Program-made: the position numbers and the translations under genes
The notes under the pieces: model-generated
The model's input: only the letters and a program-made list of their open reading frames with translations
The model's database searches: none
Told to the model about the DNA's origin: nothing
Shown: piece after piece, positions 27,648-35,773 of the stretch
How the letters are laid out: each line of letters opens with the position of its first letter
Position numbering within the stretch: the first letter of the stretch is position 1
Origin: Escherichia coli
GTDB lineage: Bacteria; Pseudomonadota; Gammaproteobacteria; Enterobacterales; Enterobacteriaceae
DNA length: 64,000 nucleotides
Assembly: GCF_030013595.1 (NCBI RefSeq)
Contig: NZ_CP122772.1
Direction: 5' to 3' (one strand)

Positions 27648-28880
27648 TCAGCCGCACACCTGCTGTCGTGCCAGTCGCTCATGCATCAGGACCAGCTCTG
27701 CCAGTCGGTAACCCCGCTTCAGCCCCGTAAAACGCATCTGACTTCCGCACAGAATGCACTTCAGCGGGTCAACCTTCAGTAACCTCTGATACATCCCTCT
27801 CCACCTGATTTGCATCGCCGTTTTTCTCACCGTCTCCGTTATGACGTACACAACTTCTTCCAGTAAGCGGCGCTTCACCGGACTCAGGAAACCGTAGTAC
27901 CTCACCATACGGAACCCCTTATCTGCTACATGCCAGGAGAACCTTTCCATGAACTCATCTCCACTCATCAACAGGTATTCTTCCCGTTTTGTACGGTGAC
28001 TGTTGTAACGCAGACCGATTTCATCCTGACCGGCATAATGCTCCAGCCGACTCATCGGCACCGGTGGCTTTTTCAGGTAAGAGCCGAAGTACACCGCCAC
28101 ATGTGTGGCGTTATCCATCACCCTGGATATGTTGACATTCCAGCCGCGGCGGTAATGCGTGTCCAGGAAGCGATTCCAGTCCCGTTTGCTGTTTCCTTCC
28201 ACTGCCAGTTCATCCGGTATTACCAGCTCCGGGTATTTCCGGGACAGTAGCCGCGTTATCCGGTAACGCCACATGCTCATCACCTTACGCGCGTAAAAAT
28301 GAAGATTTTTCCAGGTGTGGCCCGACGTCACACCACCGGCAGTTGTCGATAAATGGATATGCGGATGCCACTGCTGGTCACGCCCCCATGTGTGGATCAC
28401 CGTGAATATCCCCGGCTCCACATCTGTCTGATGGCAGATTTCCAGTATCACATCCGCTGCAATGCGGCTCATCTCTGCCAGTAACCACCGGTTGTGGAAC
28501 ACCAGGGACCAGTACTGGCAGGGAAGTGTGAACACAATATGCTGCCACGGGCAGTCGGGGACCAGGCTCAGCAGATACTGTATCCACTGTGCGCCAGCCT
28601 TCACCCCGCAGTGCGGACAGGAGCGGCTTTTACACCGGAAGCAGACCTTTTTGGTGTGGCAACAGTCCGGTGACGAACAGCACCATTGCGTGTAGCCCAT
28701 CAGCGTGGTCCCGCATGCCATGATTTTTGTCACTGACTCAGTCACCACCGGACGCACTGAACCTTCCGGCTGTTTCTCCAGCCAGTTAAGCCAGCGGTTA
28801 CCCTGCTGAAAAATATCGGCAAAACGGGGAAGCATCAGACGGGTGGGGTAACGCCATCCGGCCAGTGAACTGTGCCGCAT
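27648..28880 (-). CDS. tnpA: IS91-family rolling-circle transposase (TnpA)
   Basis: 410-aa ORF with N-terminal Cys-rich zinc-binding region; identical copy at 34244..35476. Confidence 0.85.
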   Translation of the reverse strand: MRHSSLAGWRYPTRLMLPRFADIFQQGNRWLNWLEKQPEGSVRPVVTESVTKIMACGTTLMGYTQWCCSSPDCCHTKKVCFRCKSRSCPHCGVKAGAQWIQYLLSLVPDCPWQHIVFTLPCQYWSLVFHNRWLLAEMSRIAADVILEICHQTDVEPGIFTVIHTWGRDQQWHPHIHLSTTAGGVTSGHTWKNLHFYARKVMSMWRYRITRLLSRKYPELVIPDELAVEGNSKRDWNRFLDTHYRRGWNVNISRVMDNATHVAVYFGSYLKKPPVPMSRLEHYAGQDEIGLRYNSHRTKREEYLLMSGDEFMERFSWHVADKGFRMVRYYGFLSPVKRRLLEEVVYVITETVRKTAMQIRWRGMYQRLLKVDPLKCILCGSQMRFTGLKRGYRLAELVLMHERLARQQVCG

Positions 28881-29200
28881 TCCGGGCAGTACATACCACC
28901 GGCACTGATACCGGCAAGAATGGTTGCAAACTCCCGCTCCGTACAGCGGGCTATTTCCGGATACCCTTCGTCATCGACACGAACAAACCAGAAGACCAGC
29001 TTTTTGTTTCCTGCATCCAGAAAGAACGGAATACCCAGGTCAGCGCAGCACTCAACGGCATCGTCAAAATTATCAAAGCGCAGAACTTCAGCGTCTTCTT
29101 CGTCAAAAAAATCATCCGGATGAAGTTTCACAACATAGCGGGGAAGTTTGCTTCTTTGTGGTGCGGGTTTGCGTTTACGGGGTTTAGCTGAACGGGCCAT
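28835..29200 (-). CDS. IS91 ORF121 accessory protein
   Basis: 121-aa ORF MARSAKPRKRKPAPQRSK... overlapping the tnpA start; present in every complete copy. Confidence 0.7.
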   Translation of the reverse strand: MARSAKPRKRKPAPQRSKLPRYVVKLHPDDFFDEEDAEVLRFDNFDDAVECCADLGIPFFLDAGNKKLVFWFVRVDDEGYPEIARCTEREFATILAGISAGGMYCPECGTVHWPDGVTPPV

Positions 29201-29622
29201 ATAACTACCTGAAAGACAATGACATTATCTTTTTTTATAACGGTAATTCCAGACCATGACAAGCCGCAGCCGCCAGGCTGCCTACTCGATTCTCTCGTAG
29301 AATGTGTCGTCTGGCTGAACGAAAAAACCGCCTTGGTGGGCGGTTTTTCAAAGGTTTATGGAGTTGGCGCTCGTTGAACCGAGGTAACTGGCTTGGAGGA
29401 GCGCAGCCTCCAAAATAACCTGAATGTCCAAATGGGACAGAGATTATGTAACTGAGGGATTTACTAGCGTTGTTAGAAAGGTGGCTTATCAGGAGATCTA
29501 TAAAAATGCAAAAGCCCAGTTTTTCAACTGGGCTTCGCGGTCCCTCAAGGGGAGAAAATCTGAATGGCCTCTATGGGCTACACAGCTAGTTTAACAAATC
29601 AGTAGGTTGTGTCAACAGTAAA

Positions 29623-30096
29623 CTATTTTTCGGATTCCTGCTGTGCTGGTACAAGCGCAGTTGCATTGATAGCTTTGATTACAGCTTTTTGTAGGTTTGT
29701 GACAATTTCACGTGAAAGTGTCTGCGTTATCCATCCCCTATCTACTGCCATAGGTCTGTTAAGTCGCTGATTACTTACTGTTTGAACCATGTCGCATTTA
29801 ACCCAACTAGTTGTTTGTGGGAAATATTTTGCTGGTTTAATTATCCCCTCAGGTAACTCAACGTGAAGGCCATTATTAAGTTTAGCTGGATCTTTTGTGG
29901 TTGAAATCGGAACCACAATACAGGCATTGCCATTCAGACGCCCATTCAATACAACGACGAGTCTACATTTAATCATTTCTGGGGGAATATGAGCATCGAC
30001 AGCAGTCGAAACTACATCTCCTTTTTCATCTTTCAAGTAGTTTCCGTAATTACACGTGAGAATTTGCCCCACTTTAGGGGAAAAATTTATCGGCAT
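29623..30096 (-). CDS. MazF/PemK/Kid-like toxin-fold protein (157 aa) with no obvious antitoxin
   Basis: Motif order matches Kid/PemK as I recall it: G-Q-I-L near the N-terminus, a hydrophobic VVV/VVP core (CRLVVVL, CIVVPISTT) and VKCDMVQTVS (compare VRCDQPRTID); RBS present. Confidence 0.45.
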   Translation of the reverse strand: MPINFSPKVGQILTCNYGNYLKDEKGDVVSTAVDAHIPPEMIKCRLVVVLNGRLNGNACIVVPISTTKDPAKLNNGLHVELPEGIIKPAKYFPQTTSWVKCDMVQTVSNQRLNRPMAVDRGWITQTLSREIVTNLQKAVIKAINATALVPAQQESEK

Positions 30097-30885
30097 ATCA
30101 GAGCCTTCAGATAGTCAAAGAATAGAACATAGATTACTACACAGGAAAGGCTATGCGCTACATGGCGTATATAATTCTATGATCATGAGGAAGCAGCTCC
30201 TCACCAGGACAGAAAATGCTGTATGTCCAGTCAACCGAAGAATTATAATGGCAACCATGATCATCACAGGAAGAACGAGTAACAGATGGTAACTGCGTGG
30301 GTGGATGTGGCTGATAATGCCGTAAAAATAGGTTTGGGGTCGTTGTTGACTATTTTAGGGGGGGCTGACTCTTAAGCTAACACAAAAGCACGAATTAAAA
30401 AAAGAAGCGGCAGTACAGGGATTAAAAGATAAAGAAATAAGTCAGGTTTAGCCATAAGGAAAGCAGCATTTAAACTCCAGTTTGATGTTTCTACTTTCAT
30501 TTTCTACAACAAAATACACGACACAGAACTCATTAATGCACTGAGGGATAAGGCTAGAAATTCTGTTTCCATGTTTCAGGCCATTGTGAATGAGGAAATC
30601 TGCAACGGAAAGTTTGGCACAGCAAGCCAGTAGCGCAGGACAGAATAACCTGTATGTCAGGTGATGCAGGAAATCTTATTCAAATTATCTGGTGCGGTCG
30701 CAGCTGATAAAGGCGTTGGCCAACGCGCTCGATACAAAGCCGGCGTTTAGATGATTGGTTATTTTACAGTGAGTTATGTCATTTCTGCCGAGGAGAATAT
30801 TGGTGAGTTTTTTTGAAAAATATCACAGTACGTTAAAGGGCAGGAAGCGGTTCACTTCCTGCCCTTAGTTACGTTTCCGCTGTCA

Positions 30886-30981
30886 TCAGTCGATGAACTG
30901 GCGAATCAGTTCCAGAATTGCAATCAGCGCGTTCGCAACGGCGACTACAGCCCTGAGAACGATGATTAACAGATTAATCAT
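30886..30981 (-). CDS. DinQ-like small hydrophobic type I toxin candidate (31 aa: MINLLIIVLRAVVAVANALIAILELIRQFID)
   Basis: Short ORF with GGAG RBS 6 nt upstream, single predicted TM helix, hairpin plus T-run immediately downstream on the minus strand; paralog at 43621..43704. Confidence 0.4.
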   Translation of the reverse strand: MINLLIIVLRAVVAVANALIAILELIRQFID

Positions 30982-31291
30982 CCGTTTCTCCAGTAAAACT
31001 GGAGGAAATCACCGTTGCTTACTCATACACTGCCTGTCACAACGGCTCTCTCGCATTGTTAGGTGTAGAGTGACCTCCTCCTGCCAGAGCACCGAATACA
31101 GCACCACCTGTTTATCCAGCCAGGACTTTAAAATCGTTCATACCCGCAGATACGGGAAGAGCAGGATTACAAGCCAACTACATGACTAACTGACTGATTA
31201 TACGCTACACAAAACACCCGTTACACAACTAAATGTGGTTCCTTAACCACATTTAGTTGCTTTACAGCACCATAGTGAATAAAATGTAAAC

Positions 31292-31380
31292 GTTAGGTGT
31301 AGAGTAACCTTCTCCGGTCAGAGCCACCAACTCAAGGCCGGAAAGCACAAAAAAGCCCGATTACCAGTCGGGCTTTTTTG
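31292..31380 (+). ncRNA. Conserved two-hairpin RNA module A (stem-loop plus bidirectional terminator); sRNA or 3' terminator cassette
   Basis: tccgg/ccgga stem with conserved loop (cagagccaccaactcaag) followed by terminator aaaaaagcccgattaccagtcgggctttttt; related copies at 31950..32018 and 43801..43870 with compensatory stem changes. Confidence 0.4.
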
Positions 31381-32429: not shown

Positions 32430-33835
32430 CTACTTTTTGGAGGTAAATTCAAACCCTAATTTTCCTGTTGCTTTATCAAGCAATTTAACTTTAGCCGAAA
32501 ATTCTTTATTCGTCCTGGAACTAACAAACCCTTTTAACTCTCCTGTAATACCTTTTGTTAGCAAGGTTTCTACTTGCTTGTCAGAAAGCTCCTTGCCAGA
32601 GAAGTTCTTCCAGATTTTAAATTCACATCCTGTACAGAAATAACCTTTTGGCCTGATAGCAATCTGCTTACCACAGGAAGGGCAGGGAGCATTCAGGCGT
32701 TGAGATTGGCCTGCTGGCGCTGCTGCTTCAATCTTCATCTCGCCCAGGTCAACATCTATAATCATGCCGCTCAGTTCACTGTAAAGCTCATTAATAAACT
32801 CTTCAACCGTCAGATCACCATTTTCAATAGCAGCCTGTTTTTCAGCCCATAATGCTGTCATATCTGGATTAACAGCTATATCCGGCAGAGCATCAATAAG
32901 CGCATATCCGGTATCTGTCGGAATGAGTTTTCCTTTTTCCAGCGTGATATAATTTCTCTTCTTCAACGTTTCCAGAATCGCTGCACGGGTAGCTGGTGTA
33001 CCAATGCCGCCATGTTCATCTTTTTTGTCTTTATCTTTATCCTTCAACAATTTTTTAATCGTTGGGTCAGTGACAAAATCCGCGACACGAACAAGCGCAG
33101 CAAGCAAGGAGGCTTCAGTAAATAATGGCGGCGGTGTCGTTTTTTTCTCATTAACTACAACTTCTTTTGTCGTCAGTGTTTCTCCTGTGCGAACTTTACA
33201 GAGTAGTTCAAAAGCGGAATCATCGTTATCTTCTGATTCACCTTCGTCTGTGGTTTCCGCACCAAGAAATGCCTCAAATCCGCTGTCAGTTGTTTTTCTG
33301 GCACGAGCATAGAACGACTCATCACCACACTGAATGGCAACCGATACTTCCTGGTATGCTTTTTCAGGCATGAACTGAACAAGATAGTGTTGTGCGATCG
33401 CAAGGTAAACATTGCGCTCGTCGGTGCTGAGTGCGTTAACATCAGGCACACTGGCAGTCGGGATTATCGCAGTATGCGCAGTCACCTTTGCACTGTTAAA
33501 CGCCTTGCTTTTACGTGCGGAATCAATATCCAGCGACTGAGGAAATACTGATTTCAGGGCATCGATAACCTGCGGCGCTTCGCTGAATTGTTCATCAGAA
33601 AGATATGAGCAATCAGAGCGGTTATAAGTAATCGCTTTATATTTTTCACGTAATTGTTGCGTAATATCCAGCGTTTTTTGTGCCGTCATTTTGAACTTTT
33701 TGTTCATGTATTGCTGGAGTCTGACCAGGTTAAACGGCAACGGCGCAGCCGTTTTTTTATCATCAGTTGCTGCCGCTTCAACGGTAGCCGGTTTTCCTGC
33801 AAGGGATGCAGCCGTTCCGTCTGCCCACGCTTTAT
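32430..33835 (-). pseudogene. topB: DNA topoisomerase III (TopB-like) gene truncated at its 5' end by IS91 copy 2
   Basis: Translation has type IA topoisomerase features (GGIGTPATRAAILETLKKRNYI; C-terminal zinc ribbon CPSCGK...CTGC) but the first ~20 codons of the ORF derive from the IS91 end sequence; the N-terminal part of the enzyme is missing. Confidence 0.7.
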
Positions 33836-33923
33836 CGAGTAGGCAGCCTGGCGGCTGCGGCTTGTCATGGTCTGGAATTACCGTTATAAAAAAAGATAAT
33901 GTCATTGTCTTTCAGGTAGTTAT

Positions 33924-34289
33924 ATGGCCCGTTCAGCTAAACCCCGTAAACGCAAACCCGCACCACAAAGAAGCAAACTTCCCCGCTATGTTGTGAAACT
34001 TCATCCGGATGATTTTTTTGACGAAGAAGACGCTGAAGTTCTGCGCTTTGATAATTTTGACGATGCCGTTGAGTGCTGCGCTGACCTGGGTATTCCGTTC
34101 TTTCTGGATGCAGGAAACAAAAAGCTGGTCTTCTGGTTTGTTCGTGTCGATGACGAAGGGTATCCGGAAATAGCCCGCTGTACGGAGCGGGAGTTTGCAA
34201 CCATTCTTGCCGGTATCAGTGCCGGTGGTATGTACTGCCCGGAATGCGGCACAGTTCACTGGCCGGATGGCGTTACCCCACCCGTCTGA
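33924..34289 (+). CDS. IS91 ORF121 accessory protein
   Basis: Identical to the ORF at 28835..29200. Confidence 0.7.
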   Translation: MARSAKPRKRKPAPQRSKLPRYVVKLHPDDFFDEEDAEVLRFDNFDDAVECCADLGIPFFLDAGNKKLVFWFVRVDDEGYPEIARCTEREFATILAGISAGGMYCPECGTVHWPDGVTPPV

Positions 34290-35476
34290 TGCTTCCCCGT
34301 TTTGCCGATATTTTTCAGCAGGGTAACCGCTGGCTTAACTGGCTGGAGAAACAGCCGGAAGGTTCAGTGCGTCCGGTGGTGACTGAGTCAGTGACAAAAA
34401 TCATGGCATGCGGGACCACGCTGATGGGCTACACGCAATGGTGCTGTTCGTCACCGGACTGTTGCCACACCAAAAAGGTCTGCTTCCGGTGTAAAAGCCG
34501 CTCCTGTCCGCACTGCGGGGTGAAGGCTGGCGCACAGTGGATACAGTATCTGCTGAGCCTGGTCCCCGACTGCCCGTGGCAGCATATTGTGTTCACACTT
34601 CCCTGCCAGTACTGGTCCCTGGTGTTCCACAACCGGTGGTTACTGGCAGAGATGAGCCGCATTGCAGCGGATGTGATACTGGAAATCTGCCATCAGACAG
34701 ATGTGGAGCCGGGGATATTCACGGTGATCCACACATGGGGGCGTGACCAGCAGTGGCATCCGCATATCCATTTATCGACAACTGCCGGTGGTGTGACGTC
34801 GGGCCACACCTGGAAAAATCTTCATTTTTACGCGCGTAAGGTGATGAGCATGTGGCGTTACCGGATAACGCGGCTACTGTCCCGGAAATACCCGGAGCTG
34901 GTAATACCGGATGAACTGGCAGTGGAAGGAAACAGCAAACGGGACTGGAATCGCTTCCTGGACACGCATTACCGCCGCGGCTGGAATGTCAACATATCCA
35001 GGGTGATGGATAACGCCACACATGTGGCGGTGTACTTCGGCTCTTACCTGAAAAAGCCACCGGTGCCGATGAGTCGGCTGGAGCATTATGCCGGTCAGGA
35101 TGAAATCGGTCTGCGTTACAACAGTCACCGTACAAAACGGGAAGAATACCTGTTGATGAGTGGAGATGAGTTCATGGAAAGGTTCTCCTGGCATGTAGCA
35201 GATAAGGGGTTCCGTATGGTGAGGTACTACGGTTTCCTGAGTCCGGTGAAGCGCCGCTTACTGGAAGAAGTTGTGTACGTCATAACGGAGACGGTGAGAA
35301 AAACGGCGATGCAAATCAGGTGGAGAGGGATGTATCAGAGGTTACTGAAGGTTGACCCGCTGAAGTGCATTCTGTGCGGAAGTCAGATGCGTTTTACGGG
35401 GCTGAAGCGGGGTTACCGACTGGCAGAGCTGGTCCTGATGCATGAGCGACTGGCACGACAGCAGGTGTGCGGCTGA
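34244..35476 (+). CDS. tnpA: IS91-family rolling-circle transposase (TnpA)
   Basis: Identical 410-aa translation to copy 1. Confidence 0.85.
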   Translation: MRHSSLAGWRYPTRLMLPRFADIFQQGNRWLNWLEKQPEGSVRPVVTESVTKIMACGTTLMGYTQWCCSSPDCCHTKKVCFRCKSRSCPHCGVKAGAQWIQYLLSLVPDCPWQHIVFTLPCQYWSLVFHNRWLLAEMSRIAADVILEICHQTDVEPGIFTVIHTWGRDQQWHPHIHLSTTAGGVTSGHTWKNLHFYARKVMSMWRYRITRLLSRKYPELVIPDELAVEGNSKRDWNRFLDTHYRRGWNVNISRVMDNATHVAVYFGSYLKKPPVPMSRLEHYAGQDEIGLRYNSHRTKREEYLLMSGDEFMERFSWHVADKGFRMVRYYGFLSPVKRRLLEEVVYVITETVRKTAMQIRWRGMYQRLLKVDPLKCILCGSQMRFTGLKRGYRLAELVLMHERLARQQVCG

Positions 35477-35656
35477 GAGCCGCAGAGGGGAAGTTGCGTC
35501 CATTTTACCGGAAACGGAGCAAAAAACCGCCATTCATACCCTGTATCAATCAGTGTCATCCTGTTTAATAGTCGTTTCCGCTCATATGGTGCACAAGGGG
35601 TGTTGAAGAAACATCCGTTTTGTGGTGCTTTTTTAGTCTTTTGGGGATTTAAATTC

Positions 35657-35773
35657 CTATCGATGAACAGAAAGAACCTGGTAGAAGGTTACATTGGTTT
35701 GCTCATAGCCCCATGATGATACAAAGATATCACCAACAGAGACAGTATCATTTTTAAAAGTTAATACTTTCAT
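35657..35773 (-). pseudogene. 5' fragment of a gene (MKVLTFKNDTVSVGDIF...) truncated by IS91 copy 2
   Basis: ATG at 35773 with GGGAGC RBS behind the duplicated promoter/operator cassette; the frame runs into the IS91 end and stops after 38 codons. Confidence 0.45.

Follow-up and report, generated by a model that had tools for sequence, protein, structure and literature searches.

MazF toxins are the textbook case of control by a protein antitoxin. We take their catalytic residues to be an Arg that opens strand 2 and a Thr or Ser that comes after strand 3, that is, R29 and T52 in Escherichia coli and R25 and T48 in Bacillus subtilis. To our knowledge, RNA is not known to inhibit any protein of the MazF family. 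The pemK RNA motif of Firmicutes, reportedly described by Weinberg and collaborators in 2017, is said to lie upstream of pemK-family genes and is thought to be cis-regulatory. Control of a protein by RNA is known from CsrB and CsrC, whose repeated hairpin loops mimic the targets of the dimeric CsrA and thereby titrate it.

The locus described here lies in a stretch of 64,000 nucleotides of E. coli DNA (contig NZ_CP122772.1), called the window throughout. It carries a yifN-like gene that is already annotated and belongs to a known superfamily; the interesting result is a conserved small RNA partner, which makes the pair a candidate for an RNA-controlled variant of these toxins.

The yifN-like gene, its product and its surroundings

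The gene and the region in front of it were located as follows, in coordinates of the window.

29623..30096, minus strand: yifN-like gene, coding for a 157-aa protein with a predicted MazF/PemK fold (ORF, Pfam PF02452, PHROG 15698, family alignment and model)
30097..30190, minus strand: 5' region of the yifN-like gene, common to the nearest relative (93% DNA identity with Intestinirhabdus alba, L015)

The product is identical to RefSeq WP_001122138.1, which is known from porcine ETEC plasmids and bears the name "type II toxin-antitoxin system PemK/MazF family toxin". At the DNA level the gene is found with 99.5-100% identity on many porcine and bovine E. coli plasmids. A sequence-only reading of this DNA had proposed that the 157-aa product is MazF/PemK-like, with structure prediction as the check. 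The Pfam PemK_toxin profile (PF02452) matched residues 24-140 on model positions 1-106 of 109 with an E value of 3.6e-13, and the unnamed family PHROG 15698 matched with E 6e-52. The AlphaFold2 model, which was built on 47 homologues and reached a pLDDT of 79, was searched with Foldseek and the 50 best matches were all MazF structures. It was possible to see the SH3-like beta-barrel and the C-terminal helix of the CcdB/MazF fold. Considering the Pfam E value, the PHROG family and the Foldseek matches, the proposal holds: the protein is predicted to have the MazF/PemK fold, and the barrel is supported by the model. Searches of NCBIfam and of the PDB sequences gave chance matches only (an arginine decarboxylase; DarA at E 0.8), and PADLOC gave no defence-system match for the locus. 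A marginal similarity (E 0.8) was observed between positions 84-121 of the YifN profile and residues 47-84 of PDB 9ukm_I; it sets the conserved FFD..RWAKADL.Q.VS..RL segment against the phage 'defense against restriction protein A' and is probably due to chance.

The same reading had placed a single insertion of about 40 residues after the first strand, which was not borne out, the extra length being split over three places. The loop between strands 1 and 2 spans residues 17-43 and is about 15-20 residues longer than in MazF, as judged from the secondary structure against MazF sequences, and further extra residues are located in the loop 82-96 and in the C-terminal tail. The residues that are invariant in 47 sequences include E40, K43, and R45 of the long loop, together with N51, P63, S65, S108, R111, and L112; P38 and P39, also of this loop, are present in at least 90% of the sequences. 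The long loop thus characterises the YifN family as a whole and is no peculiarity of the plasmid copy. S65 was aligned to the catalytic Thr48 of B. subtilis MazF, and R45 opens strand 2 as the catalytic Arg of MazF does; the two Arg are equated only through the order of the secondary-structure elements, and one low-probability alignment puts R45 elsewhere relative to the MazF residue. Because S65 aligns with Thr48 and R45 opens strand 2, an active nuclease is plausible. Alignments of the profile to the single sequences of MazF and Kid were too weak for placing the catalytic Arg and were discarded.

We found 97 homologues, many of them named YifN by JGI ('uncharacterized protein YifN, PemK superfamily'). 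The similarity of our protein to YifN covers the full length and includes the motifs IPPEM(V/I)KxRLVVVLNG and VSxxRL, with 55% identity to P0021, the intact chromosomal form of E. coli. Among 1.84 billion representative proteins, the family profile collected 561 clusters at E<=1e-3 and 31 at E<=1e-30; among the PDB sequences it reached no MazF. The gene belongs to a recognised but unstudied branch, YifN, of the PemK superfamily. A phage origin of YifN was considered and rejected, since only 6 viral contigs and 11 Vibrio elements (27% identity) matched.

That no antitoxin is recognisable beside the gene, as the earlier reading had stated, was confirmed and extended. No antitoxin-like ORF of at least 60 aa adjoins the gene in the window, and no adjacent protein antitoxin gene was detected in the relatives from Scandinavium, Serratia, Haemophilus, Roseateles, and Photorhabdus, in whose chromosomes the YifN gene stands alone amid unrelated housekeeping genes. 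The hydrophobic ORF of 38 codons that had been offered as a candidate partner is present (30151..30267, minus strand), but it is not conserved. With the nearest relative, I. alba (L015, 97% protein identity), the window shares only the segment 30190..29411, the homology starting at 30190, and most of this ORF is therefore excluded. A truncated PrlF-like ORF of 58 aa, located downstream of the gene in plasmid L011, was also rejected as a general antitoxin; it is confined to L011-L013 and absent from the window. In 30097..30190 the consensus scan gave no strong sigma-70 match; this region presumably holds a weak promoter and the ribosome-binding site of the yifN-like gene.

The position of the gene between two inverted IS91 copies, also claimed before, proved correct: the copies (27457-29290 and 33834-35667) are 1834 nt long, inverted and 100% identical, and they enclose a segment of 4543 nt. 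They merely frame this segment; the conserved unit is the module of about 780 bp formed by the gene and the RNA.

Some further observations concern the enclosed segment, which could invert or move as a unit. The RefSeq record of an identical plasmid places in it an RNAI remnant, the RNA/yifN-like module, dqlB, two hypothetical genes and a truncated topoisomerase. The ColE1-type RNAI (Rfam RF00106; 29319-29418, minus strand) is a full-length match of 72.9 bits against a gathering score of 47, has the IS91 end at 29290 on one side and the small RNA on the other, and looks like the remnant of a small ColE1-like replicon; an intact RNAII and origin cannot follow it because the yifN-like gene begins about 200 nt away. 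The 491-aa topoisomerase ORF (32430-33905, minus strand) and a short ORF at the other IS91 end (29219-29377, plus strand) have the same first 24 residues, MTLSFFITVIPDHDKPQPPGCLLD, so the topoisomerase ORF opens with IS91 end sequence that is joined to the gene, which RefSeq marks as lacking its N-terminus. About 800 nt upstream of the yifN-like gene RefSeq annotates dqlB, a DinQ-like type I toxin gene (30886-30981, minus strand), with a terminator-like hairpin nearby (30836-30866, plus strand) and a dinQ gene further on. This part of the plasmid, around dqlB and the yifN-like gene, collects small toxin systems.

The small RNA gene behind yifN and its distribution

The DNA similarity to distant relatives runs about 120 nt beyond the stop codon, with about 93% identity there against 70-73% in the gene. 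The features found in this stretch were the following.

29588..29615, minus strand: promoter of the small RNA, TTGACA-16 nt-TAAACT with TG before the -10 (promoter scan, 10/12 matches)
29501..29581, minus strand: small RNA gene of about 80 nt, GUAGCCCAUAGAGGCCAUUCAGAUUUUCUCCCCUUGAGGGACCGCGAAGCCCAGUUGAAAAACUGGGCUUUUGCAUUUUU (covariance model R1, conservation and fold energy)
29567..29578, minus strand: hairpin 1, with a 3-bp G/C stem GCC/GGC and the loop CAUAGA (predicted fold)
29541..29553, minus strand: hairpin 2, with a CCCC/GGGA stem and the loop UUGAG in the predicted fold
29508..29538, minus strand: terminator hairpin and U-run (terminator scan at 29536..29511; compensatory changes in 9 of 10 pairs)

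Counted from the stop codon of the yifN-like gene, the promoter begins after 8 nt; the transcript would start near 29581, and between this gene and the small RNA there is no terminator. Read in the register of hairpin 1, hairpin 2 has the stem CCC/GGG and the loop CUUGA, which makes it a near-repeat of hairpin 1 across a U-rich linker. Both of these upstream hairpins are nearly invariant in sequence and the linker between them varies by lineage; in Pseudomonas-like copies the stem of hairpin 1 shows the compensatory change of GCC/GGC to GGC/GCC. The minimum free energy of the RNA was -27.8 kcal/mol (z -3.3). The covariance model R1, built from 24 copies, gave a single strong match in the 64-kb window, at 29501..29581 (88.4 bits, E 9e-19). 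In an alignment of 41 copies 99.3% of the cells were paired, and compensatory changes were found in 12 of the 15 pairs, hairpin 1 included; the observed covariation values were reached by none of 500 shuffles. A sigma-70-type promoter was present at the same distance in all 41 copies, its -10 ending 4-8 nt, mostly 6-7, before the first base. The mean promoter score was 9.4 of 12, and 29 of the 41 copies reached at least 9, compared with 1.1% of random positions. The small RNA is a real, independently transcribed structured RNA. Over 29200-31300 Rfam 15 had no family matching the small RNA up to an E of 1, and at gathering thresholds it gave nothing at the position of the small RNA in 20 related loci.

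Two sequence resemblances were noted apart from this. The idea that the coding sequence holds another copy of this motif was rejected; the regex matches are due to amino-acid conservation, with freely variable codons. About 55 nt upstream of the start codon of the yifN-like gene (30149-30161, minus strand), the sequence GTAGCGCATAGCC resembles the 5' end of the small RNA, GTAGCCCATAGAGGCC; the covariance model ignores it.

The association of RNA and gene was followed in 40 genome loci (L015-L054) coding for YifN homologues of 31-97% identity, from Enterobacterales, Pseudomonas, Legionellaceae, Cellvibrio, Xanthomonas, Aliivibrio, Shewanella, Pasteurellaceae, Cupriavidus, Herbaspirillum, Massilia, and Roseateles. 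An R1 match was present in all 40, and in 37 of them directly downstream of the gene on its own strand. Of the other three, L037 has the RNA downstream on the other strand, and L047 and L048 have it 0.8-1 kb upstream. Among the loci examined there was no intact gene of the YifN clade without the small RNA. A metagenome scan that started from the RNA gave 28 copies confirmed by the covariance model, with an intact YifN gene upstream in 12, a frameshifted or truncated one in 8 and none in 8, two of these last having flanking sequence too short for judging. The conjugative plasmid pLT of Yersinia ruckeri (L074 2501-2582; NZ_CP025802.1 56163-56244) carries the small RNA (94.6 bits) adjoining its replication initiator gene, with no YifN homologue within 2.5 kb. 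Plasmid-like metagenome contigs with ParA and a Mob-like protein (L106 5168-5976, also L139 and L093) have it after a DUF4160/DUF2442 pair, not after yifN, and show no recognisable promoter of its own at the RNA. A toxin that is never without its partner, with a partner that is sometimes alone, is the pattern known from toxin-antitoxin pairs.

These results modify two terms of the sequence-only reading. "Orphan" stands insofar as no protein antitoxin adjoins the gene, but the gene is a member of the YifN branch, already annotated by RefSeq as a toxin, with a conserved small RNA directly downstream. "Unusually partnered" is where the evidence points, except that the partner would be this downstream RNA and not the upstream hydrophobic ORF.

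On the E. coli chromosome the order is rep, yifN, small RNA, ppiC, present in 4015 of 5426 complete genomes, and the core of the chromosomal RNA is 89.5% identical to the plasmid copy. In K-12 MG1655 yifN (b3777) is a frameshifted pseudogene, whereas the plasmid copy is intact, and the small RNA maps to 3959904-3959980 with no RefSeq annotation. By RNA-seq and northern blot in K-12, Romero et al. 2014 (PMC4681348) detected a small RNA that had not been seen before, "downstream of yifN on the same strand"; theirs was a detection only, and neither a function nor a link to a gene family was proposed. The supplementary tables of that paper contain no coordinates of this RNA. In the legend of its Fig. 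7 yifN is labelled b3775, which in the current K-12 record NC_000913.3 is ppiC, yifN being b3777; the small RNA lies between ppiC and yifN, so the description still fits. K-12 yifN and its unnamed small RNA are the chromosomal counterpart of the plasmid module. We also observed that the module adjoins genes of prolyl isomerases in two places. In E. coli (L014; K-12 3959532-3960460) this is the parvulin-type ppiC, with the small RNA just upstream of it, and in Haemophilus (L006 2488-3432) the YifN gene begins 4 nt after ppiB, of the cyclophilin type. The two families are unrelated and their presence may be a coincidence.

R1 does not extend to Haemophilus, Alphaproteobacteria, a Planctomycete and others. 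Behind the gene these relatives still have an RNA-like element, which shows repeated hairpins or a shared CU(N)AAGAC-type motif, and a terminator; a -10-like box is often found directly past the stop codon. For L055, L057-L060, L063-L067, L069, and L072 (Alphaproteobacteria, a gamma MAG and the Planctomycete) the approximately 150 nt after the gene contain a different conserved element, composed of a CATATT/TATAAT -10-like box at the stop codon, the CU(N)AAGAC motif, CAAGC and a terminator, which probably represents another RNA family that plays the same part. Considering that distant homologues carry another RNA of repeated hairpins in the same place, the partnership of gene and RNA looks older than the particular RNA sequence; a different RNA beside distant homologues is what is expected if protein and RNA co-evolve. 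Vibrio sonorensis (L062, 2802-3531) has a 181-aa homologue with 32% identity, whose start is overlapped by a 67-aa ORF, as a classical antitoxin would do, and downstream there are two AGCCGCAAGGCAAGTTT repeats and a terminator. This could be an intermediate arrangement. The homologue of Komagataeibacter (L055) is preceded by an HTH gene.

Possible roles of the gene-RNA pair

We propose, tentatively and at a little below an even chance, that the gene and the small RNA are a protein-RNA toxin-antitoxin pair, type III-like in its working and differently built. The likeliest role of the RNA would be that of the missing antidote of a MazF-like toxin. We infer the toxicity of YifN, its nuclease activity, its binding of RNA and its inhibition by RNA. 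The YifN protein would be a MazF-type endoribonuclease and the small RNA its dedicated inhibitor, in which two look-alike loops (C-A/U-U-N-G-A and CUUGA) would be offered to the two RNA-binding grooves of a YifN dimer as a substrate decoy. The RNA would be made from its own strong promoter and also as the 3' end of every toxin mRNA, since no terminator separates gene and RNA, and by these two routes it would at all times outnumber the protein. Carried by a plasmid, the pair would work as an addiction or defence module. In the open-access literature, subscription journals being outside the search, we found no description of the pairing. A broader claim, possible but somewhat short of an even chance, is that YifN and the two-hairpin RNA represent an unrecognised toxin-antitoxin or defence class spread over the Proteobacteria, in which a nuclease of MazF fold would be neutralised by an RNA instead of MazE and the RNA-only plasmid copies would be portable antidotes against the chromosomal toxin. 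The small RNA may have a function of its own, because it is expressed in K-12 beside a dead gene and is found alone on mobile elements.

That the RNA survives and is expressed beside a pseudogene, and also occurs alone, would fit as well with a non-toxic ribonucleoprotein, in which a domesticated YifN matures, stabilises or assists the small RNA while the regulating is done by the RNA itself. The linkage of gene and RNA and the co-variation are equally expected there, the U-rich linker and terminator are those of many trans-acting small RNAs, and the Haemophilus gene lies 4 nt behind a housekeeping gene, ppiB. We consider this alternative a serious rival, though a less likely one: a pure binding protein would need neither the Arg nor the Ser that are invariant at or near the MazF catalytic positions, frequent decay of the gene without decay of the RNA suits a toxin better, and the sole candidate for a seed region, the linker that joins the two hairpins, is variable between lineages.

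The location of the conserved element directly past the stop codon, on the same strand and without an intervening terminator, together with the fact that the terminator is its best-supported helix, could be explained by a cis-acting 3' end of the yifN mRNA, serving termination or stability with no separate partner. This is improbable in view of the promoter found at a fixed distance in 41 of 41 copies and of the discrete small RNA seen in K-12 despite the frameshifted gene. The two upstream hairpins, nearly invariant, would be needless for a terminator. In L037, L047, and L048, moreover, the RNA is on the other strand or 0.8-1 kb from the gene, and other copies have no gene at all.

An antitoxin of the antisense kind, pairing with the ribosome-binding region of yifN and blocking translation in trans in a type I-like manner, was suggested by the CU-rich stretch UUCUCCCC, which could pair with the Shine-Dalgarno sequence. 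This stretch, however, sits in the stem of hairpin 2, and the duplex energies of each RNA with positions -45 to +30 of its own gene were no better than those of shuffled RNA (41 loci, mean z -0.41). Taking into account also that the invariant sequence of hairpin 1 would be left without explanation, we regard antisense control as very improbable. A plain orphan type II toxin, with its protein antitoxin lost or encoded elsewhere and the small RNA an unrelated neighbour, has in its favour the overlapping 67-aa ORF of Vibrio L062, the HTH gene before the Komagataeibacter L055 homologue and the truncated PrlF-like ORF downstream in one plasmid lineage, and is the least probable of all, considering that six lineages have no adjacent antitoxin, that the PrlF-like ORF is limited to L011-L013 and that the RNA is present in 40 of 40 loci while, wherever the surroundings were examined, the neighbour genes change with the lineage.

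Comparison with known toxin-antitoxin systems and RNA regulators

If the proposed protein-RNA toxin-antitoxin pair is real, it would give a function to an expressed and unexplained small RNA of E. coli, present in about three quarters of the complete genomes. It would also account for a class of RefSeq annotations, the "orphan toxin" entries, and offer a compact module of 780 bp for studies of plasmid stability or phage defence.

By comparison with the type II systems MazF and PemK (Kid), which share the PF02452 family, the YifN locus has no gene for a protein antitoxin of MazE/PemI type, and the yifN-like protein has 157 aa and a long conserved loop between strands 1 and 2 (DGHIPPEMVK), whereas MazF has about 110 aa. 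The pemK RNA motif is like the YifN small RNA in being conserved, in having two similar hairpins and in its association with the pemK family; it differs in being located upstream and in another phylum, and the scan of the YifN locus with Rfam 15 gave no match to it at E up to 1. With CsrB/CsrC and CsrA the likeness to the proposed YifN-RNA pair is one of mechanism only, the protein fold and the motif being unrelated; RNAs of the CsrB type have many sites and no genetic linkage to csrA.

In the type III systems (ToxIN, CptIN, and TenpIN) the antitoxin RNA is upstream of the toxin, under a shared promoter and with an intervening terminator, while the YifN small RNA is downstream and has its own promoter. 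The type III RNA is a tandem array of repeats of 34-45 nt; the YifN RNA is a single transcript of about 80 nt with two short hairpins, and no tandem repeats were found in 29200-31000. YifN is not of the ToxN/AbiQ, CptN, or TenpN families and is closer to the type II toxin MazF than to ToxN. A branch of MazF controlled by a small RNA, if true, would make the boundary between types II and III less sharp.
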